Assembly: GCA_964630525.1 (NCBI GenBank)
Contig: CAZVUY010000001.1
Location: 44,883 to 108,882 of the forward strand
Direction of reading: 5' to 3'
Length of the DNA: 64,000 bases
Source of the DNA: an uncultured Candidatus Saccharibacteria bacterium
GTDB taxonomy: Bacteria > Patescibacteriota > Minisyncoccia > Phycocordibacterales > WO2-35-19
This document shows positions 1-44,678 of this stretch, piece by piece; the first letter of the stretch is position 1, and every line of letters begins with the position of its first letter. The notes below the pieces were generated by a model, which was not told the origin of the DNA, ran no database searches, and was given only the letters and a program-made list of their open reading frames with translations. A program made the translations under genes and the position numbers.

Positions 1-537
1 CAGTTTTGGTCACAATATCTTTGTATTGATTGATAATGTTGTTGTGTATAGCCACCAAAAGAATATCTAGTGTTTTTAGTTTATTGCCATTCTTGGTTGG
101 GATTATACTTTCTTCGTTCTCCCTGCGCGGTATTACCGACCAGTCAATCGTCACTTCCGATATTGGTACTGGGATATATTTCCTAGCTTCAATACTGATC
201 ATTGCTCCGAGCTCTTTTTCTGAAACGGCTGGCATCTGAATAACCGAAAGCAAACTGGCCTTGAAAGGAATGGCTAGGCCGCAAGTTTTGGTAGTGATCG
301 CCACCTCTTTTTCGTTCAACAAATCAGTGACAGCTTGAGCCAGCCTTTCACTGTCGAGATTGGTCGATTGGCCGATCGAGACTCCACCATAGGGACCAAG
401 GGATAGTTCGCCGTATGTTTCGAGAATGGCCTTGTCCCCTTTTTTCTTGAGTTGAACTACTTTGATCGAAGAGGATCCAATATCGATCCCGAGCGCACTC
501 GTCTGTTTACTTTTAAAAATGTCGGTTAAAAAACTCA
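1..537 (-). CDS. pilM: type IV pilus assembly protein PilM, N-terminal part (gene runs off the window start)
   Basis: minus-strand translation MSFLTDIFKSKQTSALGIDIGSSSIKVVQLKKKGDKAILETYGELSLGPYGG... matches the actin-like PilM N-terminus; ATG at 535-537. Confidence 0.7.
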
Positions 538-1239
538 TTGAATAAAAGACTTAGGAAAGATAAATTATATCATATGCAAATGTCCGGCTTGGTCAAAACC
601 TGGGTAAAAAAACTGTTGGGCACAATCCAAGATTTTTTGGTTCCAGAAGGAACCAAAGTAGCCGCCCTGCTACAGCTCCCTGAGCGATCGATGCGCCAAC
701 TCTTACCCCATTCGCCTGTTAAAATGCGGGATGTCTGGGTGCTTTTTGATTATAACAATCGAGCGGTCAGACTGATTGTTAAAAATATAAAATATAAAAA
801 CAATCAAGGTCTACGACACCGAATTGCTTCTTACTGCTATGAGGAGATTATGGAAATGATCTCTGATCTAACATTTTTTGGCGGCAGTGAACCTGTTTTG
901 GTGCCCATGCCGATGAGCAAGAAAGAAAAAAGAGAGCGCGGCTTCAACCAAACCGAAGAAATTTGCCGAGCAATCGAAAATTTTTCGGCCAAAGAAATCG
1001 AGGTCGCCTACAACCTGCTCCACAAAATACGAGAAACGAGCCGACAGACCACTCTCAGCCGGTCTGAACGTCTGCGAAATGTCGGCTTCAGTATGGCAGC
1101 AGACCCTAGATTGGCTCACAACAAAACAATCATCGTCCTTGACGATGTCTACACCACTGGCGCCTCCTTCTCCGAGGCTACCCGGGCACTCAAGTCCGCC
1201 GGCGCCAAAAGGGTGATCGGGCTCTTCATCGCCCACTAA
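538..1239 (+). CDS. comFC: ComF-family (ComFC) phosphoribosyltransferase-domain competence protein
   Basis: C-terminal PRTase motif IIVLDDVYTTGASFSEATRALKSAGAKRVIGLFIA; true start may be an internal Met. Confidence 0.75.
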   Translation: MNKRLRKDKLYHMQMSGLVKTWVKKLLGTIQDFLVPEGTKVAALLQLPERSMRQLLPHSPVKMRDVWVLFDYNNRAVRLIVKNIKYKNNQGLRHRIASYCYEEIMEMISDLTFFGGSEPVLVPMPMSKKEKRERGFNQTEEICRAIENFSAKEIEVAYNLLHKIRETSRQTTLSRSERLRNVGFSMAADPRLAHNKTIIVLDDVYTTGASFSEATRALKSAGAKRVIGLFIAH

Positions 1240-1247: not shown

Positions 1248-2417
1248 TTACCTGTTACCTTTTGCTCGATTATGAGTCCTACACAACATTTCACAATTCT
1301 TCGCTGAAGTAACACCACCCTTGCTCCATGATGACACATGATCTGCTTCCATTTCGTTAAACTGCCAAATCTTTTCCTTATTCGCATCATGCCCAATGGC
1401 ACAGTGTGGGCAATTTGATTTCTTTTTGGTTTCTGCCTCTTTGGTTTGCTTAGCATAAATAGATCTTTTGGTTGCTTCGTCAAACACTCGAACATCTAGC
1501 AACTTTGTATCTTTAGAGCCACCGAGAATATATTCAAAAATGCCCCTACGATTTTTTATGTATGGATCACCATAAAGCTTATGTACTTCGGTCGATATTT
1601 TAGATGGATTAAACGATTTTTTGTGATATTCCTCATAAAGTCGCCCCCATTCGAGTCCACGCATTTCATTTTCAACGTCGATAAACACACTGGATACCCA
1701 ATCAATGACAGTGTTAAAATATTTCTTCAACTCGTCAATGTTTTTATCCTTACGATGCTTGCTCATGTAATCACCAATGTTTCCTTTGCTTACCCAATCA
1801 AGGGCACACTCCAAAAATTCCTGTCGGTTCGCACTACCAGAAACATACGCACTCCATTTTTGGATATTGGCGTTTTGGCTGTTACTAAATTCTTCTTTGG
1901 CCTTAGTTACAAATGGGCCAGAATACACAGCGTTGAGTAACTCCTGATTATTGAGCGGAACACCTGCAATATTTATTGTCCTAAACCACTCTTTTATTTG
2001 GCTTTCTGTTCCTTCACACTCGTAAATAAGTAGTTTTGTTTCTAAGATTTTGGTCTTTTTATCTCTGGCCATAGCACTAAAATATTGTGGATTCCCATTT
2101 TCATCCAATATGGCAAATTTGTCGGTAATAAATCTGCCCAAGCTTGTAACACGCTGCTGTCCATCAAGTACTTCAAATTCATCAGAACCAACTTTATTAA
2201 AATAGATCAATCCTATCGGATACCCTTTGAGAACTGATTCAATAACAGCCATTTCTCTTTTGCCACCATCAGATGCATAAATATAATTGCGCTGATACTC
2301 AGGTTGAATAGTGAGTTTACCAGATAGACCAAACAACCCCTTTCCTTCTAGTTCGTTGTATTCAAACCCTTCGCAAATATCTTTGACGGTTATGTTGGTT
2401 TTTAGGATTGTTTTCAT
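1248..2417 (-). CDS. DUF262 (ParB-like nuclease, DGQQR motif) fused to C-terminal HNH endonuclease; GmrSD/type IV restriction-like
   Basis: [10 protein letters not shown] motif in N-terminal half; C-terminal CPHC...[11 protein letters not shown]...[18 protein letters not shown] signature. Confidence 0.75.
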
Positions 2418-2418
2418 A

Positions 2419-3258
2419 TTATTTATTTTTTAATTTTAGTTGTTTGGCATTTTTACCTGTAATAACCTTTTTGCCAGTTTTACTTTCAATATCACGCCTG
2501 GCGTTACCTGCCACACCTCCACCTTCTCGTGCCACTTGTTTGCTTTCATTCAAATCTTTCGGCTCCCGCTTCTGCGAAATTTCAGTTGTAGCAGTTTCTG
2601 CCAACATATTCAGCACCAATTCTAGATTGGTCATATTATCGCGTAAATTTTCTTTTTTTAAATCTTTCAGTTTTTTATATTCCCGAGTTGTCAAACCTGT
2701 CCACGCTTTGGTAATTTCATCTGTAAGAATGGCGAACTCCAAACCTTCTTTTACTCCCCGAGTTTCCCATTCATCAGTCAAAGCTTTCCTGATCTCAATA
2801 CTTTTTAAGCGTTGATTTATCCATTCTTTGCTGTAACCTTTTTGTAAATAAGTTTTCAAAGCTCGATCTATGGCCAATTCCGGATCAGCAGTTTCTTCCA
2901 ACCTCTCATAACCTACTCTTGCCAGCCAAAGTTTGAACGGCTCGGCTTTTGGCGAAGGAACAGACTGGATAATACGTAACGCGGTCTCAGTATCAGCCAT
3001 ATCTGTTTCTCTATTTTTGCCGTCTTCTGCAACAATTTTCAACTGTACGATTTTTTCGTACACTTCGCTTCCTTCATTTTTTAGTTTACTTTTTAAATCT
3101 GACCAATAACGGCGTGGGATTGAGCTTCCTGTTAGGGCTTGGATAATATCAACTACTGAGAAATGCCAAAGCTCTTTTTTTTCATCCCAAACCCGTCGTA
3201 TTCTCTTCCCTTCAAAAACAGTTGGGTGTATATCGTTTTTTGTCTGTCGCTTTTTCAT
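2419..3258 (-). CDS. DinD-like DNA-damage-inducible protein (Bro-N domain)
   Basis: N-terminus [32 protein letters not shown]...[10 protein letters not shown] resembles DinD/Bro-N family; 1-nt gap to downstream DUF262-HNH gene. Confidence 0.6.
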
Positions 3259-3310
3259 ATTTTTTATATTTAGACGTTACGTTATTTAGAACTAAAAGTA
3301 TAATTAATGA

Positions 3311-4990
3311 TTATTCATTTTTAATAATATTCCTTATCACATTTAGAATGTCGTGTATTTCACTCAACCATTGTTTTTGTTCTTTTTTATTTAGTGCCAA
3401 AACATAATCTTTAATACCTTTTTTATTAGGAGATGATATGGTCTTATCTCCTTCCTTCTTTGTTATTTGATATTTAGAAATATCAAACGTATCAGGAACA
3501 GTTAGCAAGTGCTCAATGCCTGTATGGTATTTAGCATCATTAATTTTATTTGGGCAATATATAATGAGATTTTCAATAGTTTTTACCTTTTCACCGCAAT
3601 CGATGTCATAAAAAAGAATTACTTTATACCTTGGATTGTTTATCTTAAGAAATTGTTCCGCTTTTTTTAGCTGACCTTTGCCATTAAACTCAGATTGACC
3701 ATTTATATTTTGACCAATCGACTTAATTTCTGCTGGATAGTCTGTCACATCAAAAACTTCTAGTGTTTTCTTAAGATAAAACTCATCAAACCCACCTTCC
3801 ACAAAAATAACGGGTTTTTTTAATAGCGTTATTTCTTTGTATAATTTTTCTATTTGCTGTTCCTTTATTCTCCATTCTTCAATTAATTCTTTCTGAATTT
3901 CAAGAGCCCCAATTTCATCCGCAAGTCCAATTTTGCATTCATTTTTAAATAAACTCTGGAAGTTCTCAAATTTTGTTTCTCCAAGTATACTTTTATAACA
4001 ACGCAAGATTGAAATGTTGGTATTTTTATTAAAAATAAAAGCAAGAGAATGAGATGTTAGAAACAATTGAGAATTTTTTGCATATGTAGAAAAATACAGA
4101 TCTGCAACCTCTTGTGCTTTTTTAAATTCTAGAGAATTCTCCGGCTCATCAATCCCCCAAACATAAAACTTTTTGGGGTCGTGTTTTTGAATCCATTGTA
4201 ATAATGGTGGTATAAATTTGCTTTTTATTCCATCTCCTCTTAATAAAAGCGGTATTTGAAAAAACTCTTTTTTTAATACATCTCTCCTCCCCTTCTTTGA
4301 CGGATTTATTTGAGTATCTAGCTCAGAAAACTGATCATAAGCTGTATTAATATTAAGCTTTTCCCAAAAATCCCTAACTAAAACCGGCAATTCAAATCTT
4401 GTTTCATTTTTAATAGCTGACTCAGATAATATTTCAACCAAATCTTTTACATTATTATTTACTTGATCATTCAGATTTACAATATCCTGATCACTAATTA
4501 ACTGACTTCTACCTACTTCTCCCAGTATAAATCTCAACACCTCTAGCCCCTTAAGTGCTGGGATATAGTAATATTGAAAATTATTTATCAATCTTGTAAT
4601 TGACGCTTTCTTCTTGGCATCATCATGAGAATAATTTTCAGTAACTCTTCCATATCTATCAAAAACTCGCTCAACCCAGACTTCCTCACTATTTAAAGAT
4701 TTAAATGAGATAGGGGCAGTAAAATAAACCTTAATTTTTACTTGTTGTTTCTTCTTGTTTGACCTTTGAGCCGCCGCTAGAGATATTTTAGAGTAATCAT
4801 TTTCAAAATTATAATCAGTCTCAAAATCAGTTTGCCCCTTAAAAAATAAATTTAATGCCTTCAAAACGTTTGATTTGCCAACATCATTCAATCCTGAAAA
4901 AATATTTATATTCCCAGTATTAATTTGCTCATGTCGAATTGAGCGGAAACTATCAATCTCAATTTTAGTAATCAAATTATTCATACTCAT
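3311..4990 (-). CDS. OLD-family ATP-dependent endonuclease-like protein (ABC-type ATPase N-terminus + TOPRIM-like C-terminus)
   Basis: Walker A FSGLNDVGKSNVLKAL; LTSHSLAFIF Walker-B/D-loop-like; C-terminal VIFVEGGFDEFYL...ILFYDIDCGEK TOPRIM-like acidic motifs. Confidence 0.6.
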   Translation of the reverse strand: MSMNNLITKIEIDSFRSIRHEQINTGNINIFSGLNDVGKSNVLKALNLFFKGQTDFETDYNFENDYSKISLAAAQRSNKKKQQVKIKVYFTAPISFKSLNSEEVWVERVFDRYGRVTENYSHDDAKKKASITRLINNFQYYYIPALKGLEVLRFILGEVGRSQLISDQDIVNLNDQVNNNVKDLVEILSESAIKNETRFELPVLVRDFWEKLNINTAYDQFSELDTQINPSKKGRRDVLKKEFFQIPLLLRGDGIKSKFIPPLLQWIQKHDPKKFYVWGIDEPENSLEFKKAQEVADLYFSTYAKNSQLFLTSHSLAFIFNKNTNISILRCYKSILGETKFENFQSLFKNECKIGLADEIGALEIQKELIEEWRIKEQQIEKLYKEITLLKKPVIFVEGGFDEFYLKKTLEVFDVTDYPAEIKSIGQNINGQSEFNGKGQLKKAEQFLKINNPRYKVILFYDIDCGEKVKTIENLIIYCPNKINDAKYHTGIEHLLTVPDTFDISKYQITKKEGDKTISSPNKKGIKDYVLALNKKEQKQWLSEIHDILNVIRNIIKNE

Positions 4991-5015
4991 TTCCGAAAAT
5001 TAATTTCTCTAATTT

Positions 5016-6233
5016 TTATTCTTTCTTGTGCCTTATAAAAATTCTTTGGTAAGCAGACTGGATTATTCTTCCGTTTTTATTTATAAAATAATTCTTTTTT
5101 CCATCATTTCGAACTAAATTAGCATTTTCATTTGTCTTTCCACCAGATGATCCCGTCTTACTACCATCCTGTCTTACTTCCCAGTAATCATCATATTTTT
5201 TTGTATCTGGAACACCATCGTGACAACCTCTTTGGGTAGCTCCTAAAATTTCGAATTGATCAGGATTATATTTATCTAAGAAACTGATGGGGACACCCAT
5301 AACACCTTTATAATCACCAGGAATTGAGTCGGTAAAAGGGACTTCAATTGCGTCGTAATTATCATATTTTTCGTATGCTTTCTTACCTTTGATTTCTTTG
5401 TGTTTGCTGTATTTCAAATTTTCCTCCATCGTCATTTGTTTGAGCGGCTGATGACGACGACCATGGTCAAGATTGGTAAACCAACAAACGTTCCTAAATT
5501 TCACTAAGCCTGTTTTTTCATCATAAACCCCCGAGGCAAATTCGCGCGTATTTGGAGTGAAAAAATAGGCGTTGCCGGCATGAAAACCGTTCCCAAGCCA
5601 CATTTTATTTTCTTTTATTAGTGGAAAAATTTCTTTGTAGGTAATAGCATTCATATTGCCGATAATTACAAATTTTTTATTGTAATCAAAAAGCTGTTTA
5701 ACATATTCACGAAACAAAGAAAATGGCGGATTGGTTACTACGATATCGGATTGCTTTAGTAAAGCTATACATTCCTCACTCCGAAAATCCCCGTCGCCCT
5801 CAAGTGGTGCCCATTCGTTGTTTTTGTTTGTCTTCAACTGTTTAGCGATGTCTTGTAGGTTGAATTCCCCATTTTCATCTGTATCCCGAACCTCGTTGAT
5901 AATAAATTTGTTAGCGGTTACCTTTGGACGGCCTTTTGCTTTTTCAAGTGTTTTATCATCACCAAATAGCCCAAGTTGTGTATTAGCAACAGGCGAAGGT
6001 TTATAGCTTGTCGTGATGAGCTGTTTTAATCCAAGCTTGTTGAAATTGAGTACAAAATAGCGAAAAAAATTACTCTCAAACGGGTCGTCGCAATTACAAT
6101 AAATGATCTTGCCTCGAAATACATTTTTATCATAATCTAAGTATGCTCCGATCTCTTTCTGGATATCGCCATATTGAGTATAAAACTCGTCATTTTTGGC
6201 CCTCTTGGCGTTAGTAAGATTATTATTTGGCAT
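5016..6233 (-). CDS. adenine-specific DNA methyltransferase (EcoRI-methylase-like family)
   Basis: N-terminal KNDEFYTQYGDI and catalytic VVTNPPFS (NPPF) motif; 25 nt upstream of OLD-like gene on the same strand. Confidence 0.7.
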   Translation of the reverse strand: MPNNNLTNAKRAKNDEFYTQYGDIQKEIGAYLDYDKNVFRGKIIYCNCDDPFESNFFRYFVLNFNKLGLKQLITTSYKPSPVANTQLGLFGDDKTLEKAKGRPKVTANKFIINEVRDTDENGEFNLQDIAKQLKTNKNNEWAPLEGDGDFRSEECIALLKQSDIVVTNPPFSLFREYVKQLFDYNKKFVIIGNMNAITYKEIFPLIKENKMWLGNGFHAGNAYFFTPNTREFASGVYDEKTGLVKFRNVCWFTNLDHGRRHQPLKQMTMEENLKYSKHKEIKGKKAYEKYDNYDAIEVPFTDSIPGDYKGVMGVPISFLDKYNPDQFEILGATQRGCHDGVPDTKKYDDYWEVRQDGSKTGSSGGKTNENANLVRNDGKKNYFINKNGRIIQSAYQRIFIRHKKE

Positions 6234-6237
6234 AAAC

Positions 6238-6268
6238 TATACCAAAAACCCTACCACATTTAGGGCTA
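6238..6268 (-). terminator. rho-independent terminator after rplE
   Basis: minus strand CCCTAAATGTGGTAGGG hairpin followed by TTTTTGGT. Confidence 0.5.
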
Positions 6269-6333
6269 AAAATGAAGATAGATTTTGTCTTCCCTCTCAT
6301 TAAAAAAGAAAGGGATTGATGAGGTCTGAAAAA

Positions 6334-6870
6334 TTAGGATTTTTTGAACGGCAAATCGAGATGTTTGAGGAACTCGAGAGTGGCTTGCGGAGTCCTCTGG
6401 TTGGTGACGATGGTCACCGCGAAACCAAAAACATCTTTCAGATCTTCATCAGCAGTTTCTGGAAAAACTGTGTGTTCCTTGATGCCGAGAGTGTAGTTGC
6501 CCATCTCATCAACAGCCGAAAGCGAAATGCCTCGAAAGTCTTTGGTACGTGGCAGAGCAATATTGAAAAGTCGCTCGAGGAAAGACCACATCTTTTCGCC
6601 GCGCAATGTTATCTGGACACCCACCACATCCCCTTCTCTTGATTTAAAAGTAGCGATCGATTTCTTGGCGGCTCGTTTGATAGGACGCTGACCAGTGATC
6701 TTGGCCAGACGATCAACGACAATATCGATTTTCTTTTTATCATTAAAAGAACCAACTCCGGAGCTGACTACTACCTTCAAAATCTTTGGAGCCTGCATCA
6801 CGTTTTTCAAACTCAATTTGTCTTTGAGCTGCTTGAAAGATTCTTTTGTTTTTTCTTTGATCGATTTCAT
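6334..6870 (-). CDS. rplE: 50S ribosomal protein L5
   Basis: MKSIKEKTKESFKQLKDKLSLKNVMQAPKILKVVVSSGVG... typical uL5; ORF extends to 6888 but the second Met is the likely start. Confidence 0.9.
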   Translation of the reverse strand: MKSIKEKTKESFKQLKDKLSLKNVMQAPKILKVVVSSGVGSFNDKKKIDIVVDRLAKITGQRPIKRAAKKSIATFKSREGDVVGVQITLRGEKMWSFLERLFNIALPRTKDFRGISLSAVDEMGNYTLGIKEHTVFPETADEDLKDVFGFAVTIVTNQRTPQATLEFLKHLDLPFKKS

Positions 6871-6880
6871 ATTTTTATGC

Positions 6881-6971
6881 GACACCAATTTTACGAATTC
6901 ATGCGAATGATACGAATATTTTTCTGGTCTTAATTTGTGTCATTCGTGCACATTAGTGGATTAGTGTCACG
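6881..6971. repeat. family-1 TTCGTGT repeat, inverted pair (two ~40-bp copies tail to tail)
   Basis: left copy reverse, right copy forward, 15-bp spacer; between rplX and rplE. Confidence 0.65.
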
Positions 6972-7185
6972 TTACTTTTTTAACATTTGAAACATGGATC
7001 GGGGCGGCTTGCTCGACCACTTTTCCTTTCTCGTTCTGCTTCCTCGCTCGTCGGTGAACCTTCTTCATATTCACGCCGTCGATCAAAACTTTCTCAAGTT
7101 TTGGGAAAGCCTTCACCACCTGGCCTGATTTGCCTTTGTCCTTGCCGGTTAAAACTGTTACTTTGTCTCCTTTTTTGATTTTCAT
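6967..7185 (-). CDS. rplX: 50S ribosomal protein L24
   Basis: MKIKKGDKVTVLTGKDKGKSGQV KOW motif. Confidence 0.9.
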   Translation of the reverse strand: MKIKKGDKVTVLTGKDKGKSGQVVKAFPKLEKVLIDGVNMKKVHRRARKQNEKGKVVEQAAPIHVSNVKKVT

Positions 7186-7216
7186 TTTGGTATTTTAATC
7201 GTGTATTTGTGTCGCA

Positions 7217-7594
7217 CTAAATGACTTCTGGAGCCAAAGACACTATCGCCTGGTGCCCCAATTCAGCTATCTCTCTTGGGATCGGACCAAAAATACGTCC
7301 AGCCTTTGGGACTATCTCCCCTTTCTTCTGCTCGACCACCACCACGGCGTTTTCATCGAAACGGATATAAGAACCATCTTTGCGACGAAGTGGCGCCTTC
7401 TGGCGAACTACCAAACCAAGAAGTACCGCCTTCTTCTTGACGTCTTTTCTTGGTTCGGCCTTCTGAACAGAGAGAACTACCAATTCACCGATCCGAGCGT
7501 AACGCTTTTTTGAACTACCAAGCACCTTAAAAATACGGCCGATCTTGGCGCCTGAGTTGTCTGCTATTTTGACTATGCTTCGTGGCTGAATCAT
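7217..7594 (-). CDS. rplN: 50S ribosomal protein L14
   Basis: MIQPRSIVKIADNSGAKI... uL14 signature. Confidence 0.92.
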   Translation of the reverse strand: MIQPRSIVKIADNSGAKIGRIFKVLGSSKKRYARIGELVVLSVQKAEPRKDVKKKAVLLGLVVRQKAPLRRKDGSYIRFDENAVVVVEQKKGEIVPKAGRIFGPIPREIAELGHQAIVSLAPEVI

Positions 7595-7665
7595 GGTGGT
7601 TGATTGAAAGATTTAATGATTTAAAGATTGAAAGATTTTTTCATAATTTTTCAATTTTCAATTTT

Positions 7666-7929
7666 TTAATTTTGAATTAATATGAAATGCTTATCTTTTG
7701 AAATTGGTCGGCATTCTCTGATAATGACTTGCTCACCGATTTTTTTGGTATTGCCTAGATCGTGAGCCTTGTATTTCTTGCTCACCTTGTGATACTTCTT
7801 GTATTTGGTGTGCTTCACAAAACGGTTTACCAAAACCACAATTGTATCTTTCATCTTGTCGGAGAGAACTACTCCTTTGAGAGTCTTTCCTTTGATTTCG
7901 TTATTCGGTTTTGCTGTTTTTTTATTCAT
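7666..7929 (-). CDS. rpsQ: 30S ribosomal protein S17
   Basis: KTLKGVVLSDKMKDTIVVLV...uS17 fold; position between L29 and L14. Confidence 0.85.
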   Translation of the reverse strand: MNKKTAKPNNEIKGKTLKGVVLSDKMKDTIVVLVNRFVKHTKYKKYHKVSKKYKAHDLGNTKKIGEQVIIRECRPISKDKHFILIQN

Positions 7930-8113
7930 TGTTTAATTTCTGGTTTAAAACGGTCTTGAGCCTAGCGATCTCTCGCTTAAGATTGGCAGCTTGTTTGACG
8001 TTTTTGTTGGCACTGCCGGCTGACCCAAAGCGCAGATCACGAAGAGCGACTCGCTTTTCGGCAATCTCTTTTTCCAAGTCAGCTGGATTCTTTTTTAATA
8101 ATTCTTTGTTCAT
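7922..8113 (-). CDS. rpmC: 50S ribosomal protein L29
   Basis: 63 aa, LEKEIAEKRVALRDLRF pattern; operon position. Confidence 0.8.
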   Translation of the reverse strand: MNKELLKKNPADLEKEIAEKRVALRDLRFGSAGSANKNVKQAANLKREIARLKTVLNQKLNNE

Positions 8114-8124
8114 CGTTGGTTGTA

Positions 8125-8544
8125 TTAAATGCGAGCGACCACCTTAGCCTTCACTGGCATCTTGGTGCCTCCTTTGCGCAACGACTCTGCTGCTACCGCC
8201 GGTGTTACGCCGTCGACTTCAAACATGACCTGACCCGGCAATACTCGGGCGCAATAACCCTCGATATCACCCTTGCCTTTACCCATTTTTACCTCCGCCG
8301 GTTTTTTGGTGAAAGGCATGTCTGGGAAAATACGGATCCACATTCGACCCGTCTTGCCAAGAGCTTTGGTAATAGCTTTTCTGGCTGATTCGATCTGGTT
8401 GGAAGTGACTCTGCCCGGAGTAATAGCTTTCAAGCCAAAAGAACCGAAGGCTACCGAAACACCCCGAGTCGCCGGACTCACCCGTGCCGGGTTGCGACGC
8501 AGGGTTTGCCATTTTCGATATTTTACTTTTTTAGGAAATAGCAT
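8125..8544 (-). CDS. rplP: 50S ribosomal protein L16
   Basis: MLFPKKVKYRKWQ...GKGKGDIEGYCARV uL16 signature. Confidence 0.92.
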   Translation of the reverse strand: MLFPKKVKYRKWQTLRRNPARVSPATRGVSVAFGSFGLKAITPGRVTSNQIESARKAITKALGKTGRMWIRIFPDMPFTKKPAEVKMGKGKGDIEGYCARVLPGQVMFEVDGVTPAVAAESLRKGGTKMPVKAKVVARI

Positions 8545-8560
8545 GGTAGTAAGTTAAATA

Positions 8561-9223
8561 TTATTTGGCCTTGTTAAAAATATCACCCTTGTAGATCCAA
8601 ACCTTTATACCAATCTTACCAAGTGGCAAAATAGCCTCATAAAAAGCATAATCGATGTCAGCTCTCAAGGTCTGGAGTGGGATTCGGCCCAATTTCTTGG
8701 TCTCTACTCGCGCCATGTTTGAACCACCCATGATACCAGAGAGGGTGATTTTCACTCCTTTCACATCGCGGTTAGCGTAAGCCTTCTCGATCATTTGTTT
8801 GACCACCCTTCTGAAGGCTAGCCTTTTCTCCAAACCTTCAGCGATCATCTGAGCAATGATCATGGCACTAGATTCTGGTGACTTGACCTCTTTGATGTCG
8901 ATCTTGAGATCTTCTTTGACACTCAAACTATTTTTCTTCATAAACCGGACAATATCATCACGAAGCTTGGTCATACCTTCACCACTGCGGCCAATGATCA
9001 TGCCTGGTCGTGAGCTCTCAATCAAAATCCTGAAAGTTTTGGCGTTGCGCTCCATTTCAATCGAGTTAACGAAAGAACCCTTCAGTCTTTTCTTCAAATA
9101 TTCGTGAATCAAAACGTCTCCCTTCAAATTTTCTTTGTATTTATACTTCACACCAAACCAGCGCGATTTCCAATCGCGGATGATCCCTAGTCTATGTGCA
9201 TATGGATGAACGGTGTGAGTCAT
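8561..9223 (-). CDS. rpsC: 30S ribosomal protein S3
   Basis: MTHTVHPYAHRLGIIRDWKSRWF... KH domain GRSGEGM. Confidence 0.92.
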   Translation of the reverse strand: MTHTVHPYAHRLGIIRDWKSRWFGVKYKYKENLKGDVLIHEYLKKRLKGSFVNSIEMERNAKTFRILIESSRPGMIIGRSGEGMTKLRDDIVRFMKKNSLSVKEDLKIDIKEVKSPESSAMIIAQMIAEGLEKRLAFRRVVKQMIEKAYANRDVKGVKITLSGIMGGSNMARVETKKLGRIPLQTLRADIDYAFYEAILPLGKIGIKVWIYKGDIFNKAK

Positions 9224-9236
9224 GGTAATTTAAAAA

Positions 9237-9614
9237 TTATTGTTTGCTTTTGTTTTTAGTTTTTCGCTTTTCATTTTTCGCTTCTTGTTCCAGCAGGACA
9301 ATCTTGACGTGAGAAGTGCGCTTGCGGATTGGGTGAGCGGCTCCATGAGCGACCGGCATCCTTCGATACAAAATCTTGCCCGCATCGACAGTCAAAGATT
9401 TGACCAAAAGGTTATCGGTATCCAAACCAATATTTTTGGCATTAGCGATAGCTGAATTTAAAAGTTTGTGCAAAGGAGTCACCGCTCTCTTGGTAATAAA
9501 CTCAAGCCTATTTTTGGCCTCAGCGACTGATTTGCCCTTGATAGCCGTAGCCACCAAGCGCACCTTGCGCGGCGACTGACGATAATCATTGAGTTGTGCG
9601 GTTACTGTGTTCAT
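9237..9614 (-). CDS. rplV: 50S ribosomal protein L22
   Basis: SPRKVRLVATAIKGKSVAEA...uL22. Confidence 0.9.
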   Translation of the reverse strand: MNTVTAQLNDYRQSPRKVRLVATAIKGKSVAEAKNRLEFITKRAVTPLHKLLNSAIANAKNIGLDTDNLLVKSLTVDAGKILYRRMPVAHGAAHPIRKRTSHVKIVLLEQEAKNEKRKTKNKSKQ

Positions 9615-9617
9615 ATT

Positions 9618-9658
9618 TTATATTCGTGCCATTCGTACTAATTCGTGTATTGGTGTCG
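9618..9658. repeat. family-1 TTCGTGT repeat copy
   Basis: TATTCGTGCCATTCGTACTAATTCGTGTATTGGTGTCGGG; ends 4 nt before the rplV start codon. Confidence 0.65.
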
Positions 9659-9660
9659 GG

Positions 9661-10005
9661 TTATTTTTTGGCACCCTCTGCCGCTGATTTGGCACTCTTA
9701 GCGGCTGCGATTTCGGCCTCCTTCTTCTTAGCCTCAAGATCTTTCTGCATCTTACCACCGTGCTTGATAAATTTGCGAGTCAATGAAAATTCGCCGAGAC
9801 GATGACCGACCATATCCTCAGAAACCAGGACTTCTATGTGGTCTTTGCCGTTGTGGACACCAAAAGTGAAACCGACCATTTCTGGAGCGATCACACAAGC
9901 TCTCGACCACGTCTTAATAACCCCAGTCTCATGAGGTTTTTTGCCTTCTACTTTTTTGAGGACCCTTTCGTCAACGTAAGGGCCTTTTTTGAGTGACCTA
10001 GACAT
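9661..10005 (-). CDS. rpsS: 30S ribosomal protein S19
   Basis: [20 protein letters not shown]...HNGKDHIEV uS19. Confidence 0.92.
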
Positions 10006-22672: not shown

Positions 22673-23095
22673 TTATCCCTTCACCTCGACGCCCATAGAC
22701 CTGCACTGCCCAGCGATAATCTTGATCGCTGCTTCTAGGTCGTTGGCGTTTAGGTCTACCATCTTCTTTTCGGCGATTTCTTCGAGTTGTTTTCGGGTAA
22801 TAGTACCCACTTTTTGAACTGGTGGCTTGCCGGCACCCTTCTCGATACCTAGAGCCTTCATGATCAAACTTGAGGCTGGTGGGGTCTTTAGGACAAAGTC
22901 GAAAGTCCTGTCTTCATAGATAGAAATCTCGGCTGGCACCAAGCCGTCCATTTCTCGAGTAGCGTCGTTGAACTGTTTGACGAATTCACCAATATTAATA
23001 CCAGCGGGACCGAGTGCAGTACCTACCGGAGGCGCCGGGGTTGCCTTACCCGCCGCAATCACTAGTTTTATTTTTTTGCTTACTTTTTTTGCCAT
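22673..23095 (-). CDS. rplK: 50S ribosomal protein L11
   Basis: [30 protein letters not shown]... uL11. Confidence 0.93.
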
Positions 23096-23097
23096 TA

Positions 23098-23138
23098 CAT
23101 GACACTAATTACGAATTGGCACGAATAACACGAATGGG
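23098..23138. repeat. family-1 repeat, reverse orientation (left flank of GxxExxY gene)
   Basis: reverse complement CATTCGTGTTATTCGTGCCAATTCGTAATTAGTGTCATG. Confidence 0.65.
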
Positions 23139-23507
23139 TTTCAAGTATTTATTTCTAAAATTTACTATCAGACCCAGATCCAGACCGCTCGCGTTCAAAT
23201 ACCTATTCATTTGATAATAATCTTCCTTAGTGACCAAGTCTTTGGCCTTTAGGTCGATTAGAAGCATATTGTTTATAACAAAATCTACCCTATTTGTAAA
23301 CTGGTTCTCAATTTTATCTATAGACAGCTCCTTTTCCCTTTCAAATTTTATGTTATTTTCCTTTAAAATAGTTTCGAAGTAATCAGCGTACTGTTTTTCT
23401 CGACAATAGCGACCCAGTTGATTGTGCACCTTAAAAAGTAGGCCGTTTATTAGATATGATAGCTCCTTGTGAATGATCCCTCTTTTATTCGTGTCATTCG
23501 AGTTCAT
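23109..23507 (-). CDS. GxxExxY-family protein (PD-(D/E)XK-like), inserted between nusG and rplK
   Basis: ~130 aa, LINGLLFKVHNQLG...E..Y pattern typical of the GxxExxY family; flanked by inverted copies of the TTCGTGT repeat. Confidence 0.6.
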   Translation of the reverse strand: MNSNDTNKRGIIHKELSYLINGLLFKVHNQLGRYCREKQYADYFETILKENNIKFEREKELSIDKIENQFTNRVDFVINNMLLIDLKAKDLVTKEDYYQMNRYLNASGLDLGLIVNFRNKYLKPIRVIRANS

Positions 23508-23526
23508 TCGTGTATTGGTGTCGAGT
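23483..23526. repeat. family-1 repeat, forward orientation (right flank of GxxExxY gene; encodes its first codons)
   Basis: TTTTATTCGTGTCATTCGAGTTCATTCGTGTATTGGTGTCGAG. Confidence 0.7.
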
Positions 23527-24071
23527 TAGATTTTCTTTACTTGCAAGAAGTCCAGCTCTACCGGGGTCTCTCGACCAAACATTGGCACCATCACCTTCAC
23601 CTTACCCCTATTTTCATCGACTTCACCCACCTTCCCTTCCAAATCTTTGAACGGACCGTCAACAATCTTGACCGCATCATCTACCGACAAATCAATATTG
23701 TGTTTGACTTGTTCCGAGCTCATTCGCTTAAAGAGCTCGTCGACTTCGTTTTTGTCGAGTGGTACCGGGAAAACGCCGGAGCCTACAAACCCAGTCACTC
23801 TTGGGGTGTTACGGACGACATACCAAGAATCATCGGTCACGATCATATCTACCAAAATATAGCCGGGGTAAATTTTCTCTTCCTCTTCTACCCTCTTGTT
23901 ACCTTTGATCTTGATTTTCTTTTCGGTCGGCACGATCACATTGAAAATCTTGTCTTCCATGCCCAAAGACTCGATACGCTGCTTCAAGTTGCGCATCACT
24001 GTATTTTCATAGCCGGAATAGGTATGGATAGCATACCAGTTTCGACCTTCTTTGATCTGTTGTTTAGACAT
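23526..24071 (-). CDS. nusG: transcription termination/antitermination factor NusG
   Basis: NWYAIHTYSGYENTV NGN domain; C-terminal KOW. Confidence 0.9.
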   Translation of the reverse strand: MSKQQIKEGRNWYAIHTYSGYENTVMRNLKQRIESLGMEDKIFNVIVPTEKKIKIKGNKRVEEEEKIYPGYILVDMIVTDDSWYVVRNTPRVTGFVGSGVFPVPLDKNEVDELFKRMSSEQVKHNIDLSVDDAVKIVDGPFKDLEGKVGEVDENRGKVKVMVPMFGRETPVELDFLQVKKI

Positions 24072-35401: not shown

Positions 35402-35486
35402 TGGTGCCCAGGAGAGGACTCGAACCTCCACGCCTTGCGGCTTACCCACCTCAAGGGTAAATGTCTACCAATTTCAACACCTGGGC
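35402..35486 (-). tRNA. tRNA-Leu (GAG)
   Basis: GCCCAGG acceptor, long variable arm, anticodon loop TTGAGGT, GGTTCGAGTCC T-arm, CCA encoded. Confidence 0.85.
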
Positions 35487-35585: not shown

Positions 35586-36071
35586 TTAGACTTCTGTTTT
35601 TTCAGCTTCTTTTTCTGGATTTTCAACAATAGTTTCTTCCACCTCCTTTGGCTCGACGGAGTCTTCTATGTAGTCGGCTGGTACTTCCCTTACATTTCTC
35701 ATTTGGCGACGGATTTCTTTGGCGGCCTTTTTGCGGATATGGTAGAGCTTGGCTCGACGGACTTTGGAGCGCTTAGTCACCTCGATTTTTTCAATCATTG
35801 GAGAATAGATAGGGAAAATTCTTTCTACTCCGACTCCACTCGCCACTTTGCGGATAGTGAAAGTGCCCCCAGCCTGCTTGCCATGCTTAACAGAAAGGCA
35901 AAGACCTTCAAAAGCTTGAAGACGGGTTTTAGGCTTGCCAGTTTTTTTGTCCTTCTCTACGATTTTCTGAGTAACTTTAATAGTATCCCCGGATCGTATA
36001 TCGAGAGCTTGTCTTTCTTTTATGTTTACTGGTGAAATTTTTATGGTATTCATGTGATTTTGCGAAATCAT
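35586..36071 (-). CDS. rplS: 50S ribosomal protein L19
   Basis: RSGDTIKV...KTRLQAFEGLCLSV...FTIRKVASGVGVERIFPIYSPMIEKIEV bL19. Confidence 0.88.
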   Translation of the reverse strand: MISQNHMNTIKISPVNIKERQALDIRSGDTIKVTQKIVEKDKKTGKPKTRLQAFEGLCLSVKHGKQAGGTFTIRKVASGVGVERIFPIYSPMIEKIEVTKRSKVRRAKLYHIRKKAAKEIRRQMRNVREVPADYIEDSVEPKEVEETIVENPEKEAEKTEV

Positions 36072-36110
36072 TTCGACCCAACGTCCATTAGAGGCCGAAA
36101 ATTTACTTTA

Positions 36111-36959
36111 TTATCTTTGTTTTCCTACCTTTCTTCTAGAAACAATAAATTTATTAGAATATTTCTTAGAGCGGCGTGATTTTTGGCCTTTGCCGGTTGG
36201 TTTGCCCCAAAGAGAAATAGCTCGGCGGCGACCTCTGCCTTGCCTACCCTCACCTCCTCCGTGTGGGTGATCAACTGGGTTCATAGCAGTACCTCGCACG
36301 GTCGGTCTAATACCTTTCCATCTAGAACGGCCCGCTTTACCAAAGTTTTCCAACCTCTTCTCTTCATTCGACACTTCACCGATGCTAGCAAAACAGGTCT
36401 CTCTCACCTTCCTAACTTCAGAAGAAGGCATCTTGAGGTCAACATAACCGGCATCCTTGGCGATCACCTGGACAAAATTGCCCGCCGATCGGCCGATCTT
36501 GCTACCACCGTTTGGTTTTAGTTCTACATTGTAAACAAAAGTGCCGACTGGTATCTCCTTGAGAGGCAGACGGTTACCTTGTTTTATTTCAGCTTTGAGG
36601 TCAGTGACGAATTTATCGCCAACCTTGATATTTCTTGGCATCAAGACGTATCTCTTTTCACCATCACGATAGACAGCGAGCCCGATGAGTCCAGTGCGGT
36701 TTGGATCATATTCCACTGAAACTATTTTATAAGGCACCCCAATTTTGTCGTATCTAAAGTCAACATCTCGGAAAAGTCTCTTGTGGCCACCCCCTTTGTG
36801 TCTCACTGTGATCCGGCCAGCGTTGTTGCGACCAACCGATCGCTTCTTGCCAAAAGTAAGTGCTTTGAGTGGACCATCTTTGCTTAAGATGTCTTTGTAA
36901 TTTACCACCGTCATGTGTCGGCGGGATTTAGTGGTTGGTTTGTAAGTCTTGATGCTCAT
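36111..36959 (-). CDS. rplB: 50S ribosomal protein L2
   Basis: 282 aa; GRNNAGRITVRHKGGGHKR... uL2. Confidence 0.93.
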   Translation of the reverse strand: MSIKTYKPTTKSRRHMTVVNYKDILSKDGPLKALTFGKKRSVGRNNAGRITVRHKGGGHKRLFRDVDFRYDKIGVPYKIVSVEYDPNRTGLIGLAVYRDGEKRYVLMPRNIKVGDKFVTDLKAEIKQGNRLPLKEIPVGTFVYNVELKPNGGSKIGRSAGNFVQVIAKDAGYVDLKMPSSEVRKVRETCFASIGEVSNEEKRLENFGKAGRSRWKGIRPTVRGTAMNPVDHPHGGGEGRQGRGRRRAISLWGKPTGKGQKSRRSKKYSNKFIVSRRKVGKQR

Positions 36960-36999
36960 ATCTTTGATTTAAGATGAAAGATTTAAATTTAAAATCCAC

Positions 37000-37287
37000 T
37001 TATTCGATCTTGTCACCTTTTTTTAAATAAACATAGGCTTTCTTCACTCCAGATTTCGTACCCTTTTTACCTCTCACAAACACGGCCTTGGCTGGATTGC
37101 GGACGATATTGATCTTGATCGGAGTCACCTTATAAAAAGCCTTGACTGCTTCATTGACTTCTTTTTTGTTGGCCTTATCAGAAATCTCAAAAGCGTAGAC
37201 CCCTTTCTCGACAGCGGTGTTGGCTTTCTCGGTGATTCTCGGTCGGAGGAGAACGTTTGCGTATTTTGCTTTTAGATCAGTAGCCAT
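37000..37287 (-). CDS. rplW: 50S ribosomal protein L23
   Basis: 95 aa; LLRPRITEKA...FEISDKANKKEV uL23. Confidence 0.88.
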   Translation of the reverse strand: MATDLKAKYANVLLRPRITEKANTAVEKGVYAFEISDKANKKEVNEAVKAFYKVTPIKINIVRNPAKAVFVRGKKGTKSGVKKAYVYLKKGDKIE

Positions 37288-37326
37288 TTTAGTGAATTTA
37301 AGATTGAAAAAGTAAAGATTAAAAGA

Positions 37327-37995
37327 TTATTTTAAACGGGCAGCAAGAGTGGCAATCGCCTTTTCCGGCTCGGTGACAACGCAATATCGATACCTAAGCA
37401 AATCAACCGCATTTAAATCCTTTACTTCACCAATTTCCAGGTTGCCAAAATTCCTGAAACTTTTGGAAAGGTTATCATTTTTACCAACGGTAGTAATAAA
37501 GGCAGCATTCTTTTTCCTGTTTATGTTGGCTTTGTTGTCAATCTTGGCAATTGAACTCAGAATTTCTTTTGCTTCTTTTGTTTTTGGGGCTTTCAAGGAA
37601 ATCTCATTGAGAAAGAGCACCTCTCCATCTTTAAACTTTTTCGAAAGTACCACAAAAAGAGCCTTGGTTTTCATTTTTTTATTGATTTTCACCGAGTAGT
37701 CACGCTCGTTGCGTGGACCATGAGCAATACCGCCACCAACCCAGATCGGACTACGACGAGAACCGTGCCTAGCTCGACCAGTACCTTTTTGTTTCCAAGG
37801 CTTGATACCAGTACCAGAGACTTCCCCTCGGGTCTTGGTGTGAGCGATTGGTGTTCGCTCATTGTTCAACATAGACTTCACCACCTGATCAACCAACTTT
37901 TCAGCCTTAGTATCCCAAGACAAGCCAAAAACATTCTCTGGTAGAGAGATCTTCCCTGTTTCCTTGCCTGTTTGGTTGTAAATTTTTGCTTCCAT
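37327..37995 (-). CDS. rplD: 50S ribosomal protein L4
   Basis: 222 aa; [25 protein letters not shown] uL4. Confidence 0.9.
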
Positions 37996-38033
37996 TTTGG
38001 ATTGAAAGGTTGAAAATTTTAAATTGAAATATC

Positions 38034-38648
38034 CTAATTGCCTTTAATTTCTACCAAAGTGCCTCGCCTACCCGGTATTGCTCCAGCGACAAGCATTGTA
38101 TTAGTTGAAGAGTCGATCTGCAACACTTCCAGATTTTTGACTGTCACCCTCTCTCCGCCGGTTCGGCCAGCCATCCTTTTACCCTTGGCCACTCGGCCCC
38201 CATCACGACCGCCACCGCCGATCGAACCTGGCTCCCTTTCAGAATGTTTCTGACCATGCGAGCGTGGACCACCATGAAAACCGTGCCTTTTGACCACCCC
38301 TTGGAAACCTTTGGCCTTGGAAATAGCGGAAACTGTCACCTTATCGCCAACACCGAAGATTTCGGCTGATATTTTGTCACCCAAATTTACATTGACCTGG
38401 TCTGGTCTATATTCTCGCAAAACAGCGAAATGACCTCGATCTTTTAGGTGACCCTTCAGAGATTTGGATAGTCGCTGTTCTTTAGTAGCAAAAGAGGCTA
38501 CCTGGACAGCTTCATAACCATCCTTTTCCTTGGTTTTTAGTTGGGTTACCACTGCTGGCTCTACATTCAAAATAGTAGCTGGCTTGACTACACCATCTTC
38601 CCCAAAAACCTGGGTCATATTCACTTTTTTGGCCAAAATAAACTTCAT
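38034..38648 (-). CDS. rplC: 50S ribosomal protein L3
   Basis: 204 aa; KGFQGVVKRHGFHGG uL3. Confidence 0.92.
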   Translation of the reverse strand: MKFILAKKVNMTQVFGEDGVVKPATILNVEPAVVTQLKTKEKDGYEAVQVASFATKEQRLSKSLKGHLKDRGHFAVLREYRPDQVNVNLGDKISAEIFGVGDKVTVSAISKAKGFQGVVKRHGFHGGPRSHGQKHSEREPGSIGGGGRDGGRVAKGKRMAGRTGGERVTVKNLEVLQIDSSTNTMLVAGAIPGRRGTLVEIKGN

Positions 38649-38737
38649 ATAAAAATGCCCGAGATACGATACAGGGCTTTAATAAGCTAACAAATATAGA
38701 ATTAAAATGCAAGCTCACCTCAATGTAACACAAAAAC

Positions 38738-38805
38738 TAAAAACAAAAATTCCGATCTGCGTGGGAACCCTTTAGGGAGGAGCAGTCGGAATTTTTGTTT
38801 TTAGT
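38738..38805 (-). terminator. perfect 19-bp hairpin (CTAAAAACAAAAATTCCGA / TCGGAATTTTTGTTTTTAG, 30-nt loop) immediately after rpsJ, followed by a T-run
   Basis: seen in sequence; located between the S10 stop and the L3 start. Confidence 0.5.
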
Positions 38806-38820
38806 TTTTGTATTTGAGCC

Positions 38821-39189
38821 CTATACGATCTTAACCTCAATATTCACCCCAGAAGGCAAAGAAAGGTTGGTCAGAGCATCCATGATCTTTGGAGAAGGGT
38901 TTACGATATCGATCATTCGGCGATGAACCCGCATCTCAAACTGCTCTCGAGCATTCTTGTAGACAAAGGGTGCGCGGTTCACTGTGTATTTCTTGATCTC
39001 AGTCGGCAGAGGCACTGGCCCGACGACTTTGGCATCATAACGCAGCGCGGTATCAATGATCTGCTTGATCGAAAGATCAAGGATCTTGTACTCATAAGCC
39101 ATCACTCGGATACGCAATTTCGAAACATGCTCATCCTTTTTTTGATGTTTTTTGCCGCTGTTTTTTTCTTTTGTTAACGTACTCGACAT
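38821..39189 (-). CDS. rpsJ: 30S ribosomal protein S10
   Basis: RIRVMAYEYKILDLSIKQIIDTALRYDAKVVGPVPLPT uS10; ORF extends upstream into the tuf 3' end, start uncertain. Confidence 0.88.
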   Translation of the reverse strand: MSSTLTKEKNSGKKHQKKDEHVSKLRIRVMAYEYKILDLSIKQIIDTALRYDAKVVGPVPLPTEIKKYTVNRAPFVYKNAREQFEMRVHRRMIDIVNPSPKIMDALTNLSLPSGVNIEVKIV

Positions 39190-39220
39190 AATTTTAACCC
39201 TCTTTGGCGTGATCGGTAGT

Positions 39221-40423
39221 TTAAGCAATAATCTTGGTTACCACTCCGGCACCCACAGTCTTGCCGCCCTCACGGATAGCAAACTTCTGCTTTTCCTCGA
39301 GAGCGATCGGAGCCACCAATTTTACTTTAAATTGAGCAGTATCTCCCGGCATAACCATCTCTACCCCCTCTTTCAAAGAAACTTCACCTGTTACGTCAGT
39401 AGTTCTGATGTAAAACTGAGGTTTGTAACCAGTGAAAAATGGAGTATGTCGGCCGCCTTCTTCTTTCTTGAGAATGTACACTTCTGATTCGAATTCGGTA
39501 TGAGGAGTCACGCTCTTTGGTTTAGCGATAACCTGACCTCGGTGAACATCTTCTTTGCCGAGACCTCGGAGCAAGATACCGGCGTTGTCGCCAGCCTGAC
39601 CTTCATTGAGTTGCTTATTAAACATTTCAATACCAGTCACGGTGGTCTTCTGAGCTTCCTTAAGACCGATCACTTCTACTTCCTCACCAACCTTGATAGA
39701 ACCTCTTTCGATCTTACCTGTCACCACAGTACCTCTTCCTTCGATCGAGAAAATATCTTCGATCGGCATAAGGAATGGTTTCTCGAGGTCACGTACTGGA
39801 TTTGGAATGTAAGTATCAACTGTTTTGATAAGTTCAAGTACTTTTTGAGCCCATTCATCAGAAGCATCCTTGGCTTCAAGAGCTTTGAGACCGGAGCCTC
39901 GGATGATCGGAGTATTGGCACCATCATAATGATTCTTGGTCAACAATTCGCGGATTTCTTCTTCCACCAAGTCGATCAAATCTTTGTCAGGCACCATATC
40001 GCACTTGTTCAAGAAAACAACAATCTTTGGCACACCCACTTGGTAAGCAAGGAGAATATGCTCTCTAGTCTGAGGCATGACCCCATCAGTAGCAGCTACC
40101 ACCAAGATAGCACCATCCATTTGAGCGGCACCAGTAATCATGTTTTTGATGTAGTCAGCGTGACCCGGAGCGTCAATGTGCGCATAGTGTCTAGCTGGAG
40201 TCCAGTATTCAGAGTGGTGAAGGGCGATCGTAATACCTCGAGCTTTTTCTTCTGGGGCATTATCAATATTGCCTATTTCCTCAACACGAGCACCAAATCC
40301 ATCAGCCTTATTCATATCAAGTACCCTTAAGATAGAGGCGGTCAGGGTAGTTTTGCCGTGGTCAACGTGGCCGATGGTACCAACATTGACATGGGGCTTA
40401 GAACGATCAAAAGATTCTGCCAT
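39221..40423 (-). CDS. tuf: elongation factor Tu
   Basis: [21 protein letters not shown] motifs; 400 aa. Confidence 0.97.
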
Positions 40424-44545: not shown

Positions 44546-44596
44546 AACAAAATTATACTTGAGCCACACCAAAAACAGAAGTGGAAAGAGGGTTGG

Positions 44597-44678
44597 GGTT
44601 GACCCCGTAGTAGAAAACCCCATTGGCATTTGCCTGCTTTTTTCAAAGCTATGGGATTTTTCACTACGGGGTTGACTT
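44597..44678. repeat. ~24-nt imperfect inverted repeat (GTTGACCCCGTAGT...ACTACGGGGTTGAC) in the divergent region upstream of nusA
   Basis: seen in sequence. Confidence 0.55.

Follow-up and report, generated by a model that had tools for sequence, protein, structure and literature searches.

The 64,000-nucleotide stretch of Candidatus Saccharibacteria DNA analysed here (contig CAZVUY010000001.1; the window) contains, on the minus strand at 1248-6233 and 3' of the ribosomal protein gene rplE, a block of four intact, co-directional open reading frames (ORFs) that is probably best explained as a composite, horizontally acquired defence island, in which two autonomous genes are nested within a two-gene restriction-modification (RM) unit. 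The unit consists of a DNA methyltransferase (M) and a nuclease (R), and the nested genes, which we call cargo, encode an ATPase and a Bro-N domain protein. RM systems with embedded defence genes are already known; what is new is a two-gene, type II-like host pair with a slot for cargo. An original prediction, made from the nucleotide sequence without database searches, had called the same four ORFs, which are real, intact and correctly placed, including the 25-nucleotide (nt) gap between the M and ATPase genes; both its domain calls and the defence character that it ascribed to the block are borne out by Pfam and PADLOC. Its guess that the block might be composite holds as well, in that the ATPase and Bro-N genes are separable from the rest. 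By contrast, the picture of four co-equal parts that include a stand-alone GmrSD-like nuclease has to be given up, because R pairs with M, as judged from its restriction enzyme match and from gene adjacency, and the other two genes are cargo. The four genes are:

5016-6233, minus strand: M, EcoRI-family N6-adenine DNA methyltransferase, 405 amino acids (aa) (Pfam and PADLOC)
3311-4990, minus strand: OLD-family ATPase-TOPRIM nuclease (predicted), cargo 1, 559 aa (Pfam, AlphaFold and Foldseek)
2419-3258, minus strand: Bro-N domain protein, PDC-S13, cargo 2, 279 aa (Pfam and PADLOC)
1248-2417, minus strand: R, DUF262 and HNH nuclease, partner of M, 389 aa (Pfam and PADLOC)

The core of the block is a conserved two-gene pair, M and R. 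M is recognized by the Pfam EcoRI_methylase model (7.5e-127), with the catalytic NPPF motif within 'VVTNPPFS', and by the PADLOC MTase_II model (5.4e-100), whereas R combines a GmrSD_N (DUF262) domain (2e-20), with DGQQR at residues 85-89, and a Cys4 HNH domain (PF01844, 9.8e-6), and matches the PADLOC REase_II model across its full length (5e-84). Relatives of R with 78-92% identity are present in more than 528 species-representative genomes, from phyla that include Patescibacteria, Omnitrophota, Elusimicrobia, Proteobacteria, Bacteroidota, Firmicutes, Planctomycetes and Verrucomicrobia. In the set of 80 genome loci with an R relative, 64 of which contain both M and R complete, an EcoRI-family methylase gene is located upstream of R on the same strand wherever the upstream sequence is present, and M lies 5' of R in all 64 complete loci: in 45 of these the genes abut (most often they lie 1 nt apart or overlap by 4 nt), in one they are 77 nt apart, and in the other 18 they are separated by 0.59-3.1 kb. 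The pair is also found on small Pediococcus plasmids, such as the 9-kb P. pentosaceus plasmid CP146864, on E. faecium plasmids and in 20 of 22 IMG/VR viral contigs. Given the REase_II and MTase_II matches and the adjacency that is maintained across chromosomes, plasmids and viral contigs, M and R are a cognate pair. Some 12 of the M-R loci carry an upstream helix-turn-helix (HTH) gene that resembles a controller protein, whereas no such gene is present at the window locus. In another Patescibacteria genome (L002-L004, e.g. L002 11197-13560), an HTH controller-like gene is followed by M and R and then, 27 nt after R, by a gene for a 787-aa ABC ATPase of the AAA_13 family, which we take to be the family of RloC/PrrC-type anticodon nucleases; this ATPase gene is thus a further accessory linked to the RM pair.

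To which of the known classes of restriction systems does this pair belong? The likeness to type II RM (MTase_II and REase_II) consists in the separate, co-directional, overlapping M and R genes, the full-length model matches and the optional HTH controller; the differences are that R contains a ParB-type NTPase (DUF262) domain and is far more conserved than M, that M has a shuffling cassette, and that the gap between the two genes serves as a cargo slot. The fusion of DUF262 to HNH and its linkage to RM loci have been noted before as a frequent occurrence (Makarova et al., 2013, PMC3632139). R could alternatively be viewed as a GmrSD-like nuclease of type IV, dependent on modification and functionally separate from M, given that, as in GmrSD, BrxU and SspE, its N-terminal DUF262 domain with DGQQR is followed by a C-terminal nuclease of the His-Me type (PMC12707154, PMC4619093) and that it matches, albeit weakly, the GmrSD-like HEC-05/06 families of PADLOC. 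We consider this very unlikely and reject the GmrSD identity of R: the only Pfam domains in R are GmrSD_N and a canonical Cys4 HNH, with no DUF1524, its best full-length match is to REase_II, and it is invariably paired with the same methylase family, the two genes overlapping or lying 1 nt apart. Moreover, GmrSD is typically about 600 aa in size, whereas R, at 389 aa, has no long linker, and modification dependence is not indicated. GmrSD, BrxU and SspE themselves share DUF262, use DUF1524 and have no methylase partner (PMC12707154).

Accessory genes of known or candidate defence families are inserted time and again between M and R, so that this gap forms a recurrent slot. The inserts in the 18 complete loci are all co-directional with the pair, and the cargo genes recognized in addition to those of the window are:

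RhuM (PDC-S05): L020, L049, L051, L056, L059, L069, L165
Bro-N, in the same place just upstream of R: L035, L057, L071, L076
SoFic: L030
Old-type ATPase-TOPRIM: L029
PD-Lambda-5_A and a D12 methylase: L022
PD-T7-5-like protein: L023
PIN_8: L024
AbiU2-like HEPN protein: L051
DUF2130: L071

A nested order, namely M, a variable gene, Bro-N or RhuM, and then R, is found repeatedly. Several ORFs in the gap have no annotation (a 386-aa ORF in L020, a 426-aa ORF in L022, and ORFs in L079 and L056) and, together with the DUF2130 gene of L071, make up a ready list of candidates. At the window locus, the boundary of the slot with R is as follows:

2415-2421, minus strand: junction TAA-t-ATG, that is, the Bro-N stop codon, one base and the R start codon (from a junction table of about 80 loci)

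Throughout that table, the start codon of R is located 1 nt after the stop codon of the preceding gene or overlaps it (by 4 nt), and in other genomes the A-rich 'AAATAAtATGAAAAC' precedes the R start behind M and behind cargo genes alike. Because R abuts or overlaps the end of whichever gene precedes it, its translation is probably coupled to that of the upstream gene. Embedding of defence genes has been described for Hma, BREX, DISARM and type I RM, in a screen that gave rise to the PDC families and whose coverage did not extend to two-gene type II-like pairs (bioRxiv 10.1101/2024.01.29.577857), and the RM 'guardian' genes have been reviewed (PMC12707154). The present locus shares co-directional nesting with these published cases (PrrC in type Ic RM; the HEC and PDC families in Hma, BREX, DISARM and type I RM; Payne et al. 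2024 preprint) and even some of the same families, the Bro-N protein being PDC-S13 and RhuM being PDC-S05, with the ABC ATPase-TOPRIM cargo comparable to HEC-01 and HEC-04. It differs from the published hosts in that the cargo is carried by a type II-like pair of just two genes and abuts R translationally.

The first cargo gene encodes a protein that matches AAA_15, AAA_21 and SMC_N in Pfam. Its N-terminal ABC motifs, namely the Walker A sequence GLNDVGKS (G33, K39, S40), Walker B (D281-E282) and the H-loop (H314), are invariant among 53 homologues, and in the C-terminal TOPRIM domain E398 and D462 are likewise invariant in the 53-member alignment, with D464 kept in at least 90% of the sequences; the C-terminus of one homologue matches RT-Toprim_I-C (2e-19). 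A sequence search against PDB yielded no matches, but the AlphaFold model, with a predicted local distance difference test (pLDDT) score of 83, aligns over about 515-545 columns, spanning both domains, to GajA, the retron Eco8 effector and Thermus OLD, and Foldseek retrieves GajA (1e-15), the Eco8 effector and Thermus OLD (6p74, 2e-13), at just 13-16% identity. The ATPase is accordingly modelled as a full-length structural counterpart of the OLD family (P2 Old, Thermus OLD, GajA and the Eco8 effector), with an ABC ATPase and a C-terminal TOPRIM E...DxD signature; it departs from these proteins in the low sequence identity, in that the PADLOC Old and GajA models match its P-loop region only, and in being embedded in an RM pair. 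The original prediction of an OLD-like ATPase with a TOPRIM-like C-terminus is thus upheld by the conservation of E398, D462 and D464 and by the AlphaFold and Foldseek results, and the protein is not a housekeeping RecF or RecN but a predicted OLD-family nuclease, class-1-like by context. Membership in Gabija (class 2) or in the retrons (class 3) was discarded because neither a GajB-type helicase nor a reverse transcriptase lies next to the ATPase gene, whose neighbours in the window are M and Bro-N; both are missing from the contexts of its homologues as well. PARIS (AriA plus AriB, the latter with DUF4435/TOPRIM) deserved consideration, given that AriA is the best PADLOC match of the ATPase (4.5e-17), that the C-terminus has a weak profile match to AriB (E=0.13) and that a guardian-of-RM logic would fit its location. 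However, AriA covers only residues 7-108 and 280-318, Pfam detects no DUF4435 in the whole protein at E<=0.01, the window ATPase is a single fused polypeptide, and the structure search ranks OLD, GajA and Eco8 first; the structural matches thus favour OLD and GajA, and the PARIS reading was provisionally set aside.

The second cargo gene encodes a protein with a Bro-N domain (Pfam, 9.9e-9) that matches PDC-S13 over its full length (PADLOC, 1.6e-129; residues 11-277 against profile positions 6-272 of 286) and phrog_15286 (2e-121), and in which the C-terminal ~150 aa could be assigned to no fold. The PDC families are predictions derived from embedding (bioRxiv 10.1101/2024.01.29.577857), and the Bro-N protein is a candidate defence gene in this sense. 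The DinD label that it had been given at the outset finds no support in NCBIfam, which returned nothing useful for any of the four island proteins. Homologues with 78-91% identity are very common and were solitary, in non-defence settings, in all three contexts examined. In one of these contexts (L201 6001-7776), the solitary Bro-N/PDC-S13 homologue, with 82% identity, immediately precedes a lexA-like gene (LexA_DNA_bind and Peptidase_S24), an arrangement that recalls the SOS-regulated DinD and hints, by analogy, at a non-defence or damage-linked role for this highly conserved family.

These findings bear directly on the possibility that the four genes form one obligate immunity system, in which M would mark self, and R, the ATPase and the Bro-N protein would act as sensor, motor and effector in the manner of Menshen or PARIS. 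The genes are indeed co-directional and tightly spaced, the order M-X-(Bro-N or RhuM)-R recurs, and the co-occurrence of a DUF262 protein and an ABC ATPase in one locus is the theme of Menshen, to which there are weak matches (NsnA, 1.5e-25; NsnB, 5.9e-12). Menshen, however, consists of NsnA (DUF262 and ParBDB), NsnB (ABC ATPase and DUF3696) and NsnC (inPIN and effector) (PMC12065111), and this reading was rejected because the island has no NsnC-like gene and its ATPase ends in TOPRIM, not in DUF3696; in addition, its DUF262 protein carries HNH in place of ParBDB, and a methylase is present. More generally, 70% of the M-R loci contain no cargo at all, the slot is occupied by many unrelated families, and the 80 genome loci with R contain no close homologue of the window ATPase. 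The contexts of the ATPase homologues are heterogeneous: M-ATPase-RhuM-R (L165), beside a methylase (L166), downstream of R as M-R-ATPase (L168, L169), and alone (L167, L170). Because homologues of both the ATPase and the Bro-N protein occur alone or elsewhere, an obligate four-part system is disfavoured, and we regard it as unlikely, in favour of the composite island.

The evolutionary regime of the pair is asymmetric. The mean pairwise identity of R is 81.6%, with a minimum of 73%, while synonymous differences are saturated (proportion of synonymous differences, pS, 0.67-0.88), the nonsynonymous divergence (dN) is 0.06-0.13, and the ratio of dN to the synonymous divergence (dS) is below 0.05 where it can be estimated; between the window and the Zambryskibacteria locus L051, R is 81% identical whereas ribosomal protein L5 is 73% identical. 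Such conservation of R reflects long-term purifying selection and not recent spread. The wider family of full-length DUF262-HNH proteins, in which the hyper-conserved R clade is included, shows 35-50% identity (454 clusters at E<1e-30 in an exhaustive representative search), an ordinary degree of divergence. The core of M has a mean pairwise identity of ~73%, and near its C-terminus M contains a hypervariable cassette (residues ~330-396; window 5016-5250) of which at least 24 discrete types, 11-71 aa long, can be told apart (loci L005-L084). Two loci with the same cassette type resemble each other no more than other loci do, whether R (81.7 vs 81.6%) or the core of M (73.5 vs 72.9%) is compared, and the cassette is therefore shuffled by recombination, independently of R and of the rest of M. 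It may serve in target recognition, or it may be a surface loop that phage inhibitors keep under selection.

An alternative is suggested by this combination of a constant R and a variable M: the pair might practise a non-classical, M-directed restriction with a type III-like logic, in which R would have little specificity for sequence in itself and be targeted or licensed by M, and the cassette would set the specificity, the cargo being explained in the same way as above. If the cassette does set the specificity, a constant R cannot match it alone and therefore may be directed by M. The strong constraint on R and the lack of any association between cassette type and R or M core fit this hypothesis, as does the fact that the DUF262 domains of GmrSD, BrxU and SspE act as NTPases (PMC12707154), and R would by the same token be NTP-dependent. 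However, the cassette is only a putative target-recognition domain and could instead be the diversifying surface loop, and the full-length PADLOC match of R carries a type II restriction enzyme label; on balance, we hold M-directed restriction to be doubtful. A more far-reaching version, to which we likewise attach only a limited probability, would be an undescribed restriction system in which R is targeted or licensed by a cassette-swapping M and the pair doubles as a docking platform for abortive-infection guardian genes that are coupled to R. The same data on R also speak to the view that the region is a selfish addiction cassette, maintained through post-segregational killing by R and M, whose other genes hitch-hike and which contributes little to phage defence. 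Such a view would accommodate the presence of the pair on small plasmids and viral contigs, its patchy spread over phyla and its insertion at a neutral convergent junction, but it is compatible with defence anyway and so not exclusive, while the saturation of dS, together with strong purifying selection, speaks for a function kept over long periods, and the cargo is consistently drawn from defence families; we judge addiction as the principal explanation to be quite improbable.

The flanks of the island are as follows:

6334-6888, minus strand: rplE (L5), left flank, last gene of a stand-alone rpsS...rplE block (Pfam Ribosomal_L5/L5_C and synteny)
6234-6333, minus strand: rplE-M spacer, 100 nt, with a weak terminator-like hairpin inside
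538-1239, plus strand: comFC-like phosphoribosyltransferase gene, right flank, convergent with the island (Pfam Pribosyltran; the gene caller places the start at 580)
2-538, minus strand: 5' part of pilM, cut by the window edge (translation; PilM_2/FtsA in the L001 gene table)

The flanks called initially, rplE on one side and comFC/pilM on the other, are confirmed by Pfam and by translation; a type IV pilus cluster begins with pilM. The spacings are tight (rplE-M, 100 nt; M-ATPase, 25 nt; ATPase-Bro-N, 52 nt; Bro-N-R, 1 nt; R-comFC, 8 nt), and the same gene order is found in an independent Logan assembly (L001), so the arrangement is not an assembly artefact. The base composition of the island is foreign: the GC content at third codon positions is 0.24-0.35 across the island genes, with the lowest value, 0.236, in the ATPase gene, against 0.37-0.52 in the flanking genes. 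We found no convincing flanking direct or inverted repeats or integrase genes that would mark a mobile element, and no recombinase within the island; an Rfam scan of the whole window detected tRNAs only. As for the terminator that had been proposed after rplE, a hairpin does exist (6247-6267, 7-bp stem), but it is a weak consensus match, and the scan total of 8 sites compares with 5.7+/-2.8 expected from shuffles.

Relatives retrieved by L5 similarity show what the site looks like with and without the island:

L091, L086 and L089 (L5 76-79%): empty site, rplE followed by convergent comFC at 5-80 nt, and by pilM where the contig reaches it (L091)
L092 and L154 (L5 76-81%): 1-1.3 kb of unrelated genes after rplE
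L088 (L5 81%): a different 5-kb island at the junction of rplE and comFC, 2002-6893
L051, Zambryskibacteria (L5 73%): M and R at exactly the same site, with other cargo (AbiU2-like and RhuM)
L104, L109, L113 and L098 (L5 55-61%): classical rplE-rpsN-rpsH-rplF-rplR-rpsE-rplO-secY-adk-map order, with rplB beside rpsS

The island of L088 encodes an RM enzyme of 1028 aa that resembles types ISP and IIG (Type_ISP_C, N6_Mtase, Eco57I); it further contains small ORFs and an antitoxin-type pair, SocA/Panacea. The junction between rplE and comFC is therefore a local hotspot for defence inserts in this clade of the candidate phyla radiation (CPR). The island had been thought to replace the distal half of the spc operon, but relatives with L5 identity of 73% or more have rplE followed by comFC-pilM whether or not they contain an island, and rpsN directly follows rplE in the distant relatives only (L5 55-61%), not within the clade (L5 73-81%). 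Because close relatives show the rplE-comFC order both with and without inserts, the operon break predates the island and is independent of it; the break of the ribosomal cluster is a clade-level rearrangement, and the island genes are accessory, not part of a conserved core genome. Vertical inheritance from an ancestor shared with L051 was considered and rejected, because the R of the window shares no more identity with that of L051 (81%) than with the average R (81.6%), the cassettes differ and the intervening relatives are empty; independent insertion at the same junction thus appears more likely.

Under the composite island hypothesis, the EcoRI-family N6-adenine methylase M would mark host DNA, and the DUF262 (ParB-type NTPase)-HNH nuclease R would cut incoming DNA that lacks the mark. 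The ATPase-TOPRIM and Bro-N proteins would provide second-line or abortive-infection defences, like PrrC and other genes embedded in type I RM, BREX and Hma, so that, by analogy, the cargo may play a guardian role. R would, through translational coupling, be expressed in the wake of M and the cargo. As for its site, the island landed at a pre-existing convergent rplE/comFC junction, with no displacement of rpsN-rplF.

Several considerations weigh against this explanation or against parts of it. R is more conserved than is usual for restriction enzymes and does not co-vary with the M cassette, which makes for a poor fit to a classical, independent type II enzyme, and strict type II behaviour (a defined site, blocked by methylation, NTP-free) is put in some doubt by the DUF262 domain along with the lack of co-variation. 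Restriction by R and protection by M are predictions, and our literature search found no characterized system consisting of an EcoRI-family methyltransferase and a DUF262-HNH protein, only general statements on DUF262, HNH and RM (PMC3632139). The fold of R is assigned on the strength of hidden Markov models, because its structure prediction reached a pLDDT of only 41 (from an alignment of 18 sequences with 85-92% identity, too shallow for the purpose); when R was compared with PDB by sequence and by profile, the only matches were chance ones to triosephosphate isomerase. A promoter scan of the rplE-M spacer produced nothing over background, and no promoter was found for the island. Finally, close homologues of the ATPase lie inside or beside this RM pair in three of the five contexts, a point that also speaks for a four-part system and that leaves room for cross-talk between the ATPase and the RM pair, or for a functional link stronger than hitch-hiking.

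The CPR bacteria (Patescibacteria) mostly lack CRISPR, and they are thought to depend on RM. Given this reliance and the wide distribution of the pair, with relatives of R in hundreds of species genomes from many phyla and the pair itself confirmed in ~100 loci examined, including plasmids of lactic acid bacteria and enterococci, the M-R pair is likely to be a major part of CPR immunity. The discovery of defence genes through embedding is thereby extended from type I RM, BREX and Hma to a common two-gene RM host with a precisely defined slot. The constant R and the shuffling M cassette, for their part, offer a tractable way into how the specificity of an NTPase-linked HNH restriction enzyme is set.

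Some observations on the rest of the window, in particular its ribosomal genes, are worth recording. Beside the tuf-S10 block lies an ORF of 1267 aa (40826-44629, minus strand) that is acidic, of low complexity and rich in repeats, with membrane-like segments predicted and no obvious family. ARAGORN predicts tRNA-Leu(gag) at 35402-35486 and tRNA-Pro(ggg) at 53920-53991, neither of which the Rfam tRNA model reports at its gathering score. The ribosomal protein supercluster is split into at least four pieces (6334-10005, 22673-24071, 35586-40423 and 60300-61196): tuf-rpsJ-rplC-rplD-rplW-rplB is followed by rplS (L19) and, some 26 kb on, come msrBA and then rpsS...rplE, whereas rpsL-rpsG is followed by a 188-aa PaaX/Cas2-like gene in place of fusA. 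The rpsS...rplE block is preceded by argS both in the window and in the Zambryskibacteria locus L051, and since this arrangement is shared, the fragmentation is a trait of the lineage. In addition, the normally contiguous nusG and rplK genes are separated by a gene for a 132-aa PD-(D/E)XK nuclease (Pfam PDDEXK_3, 1.6e-22; 23109-23507, minus strand).

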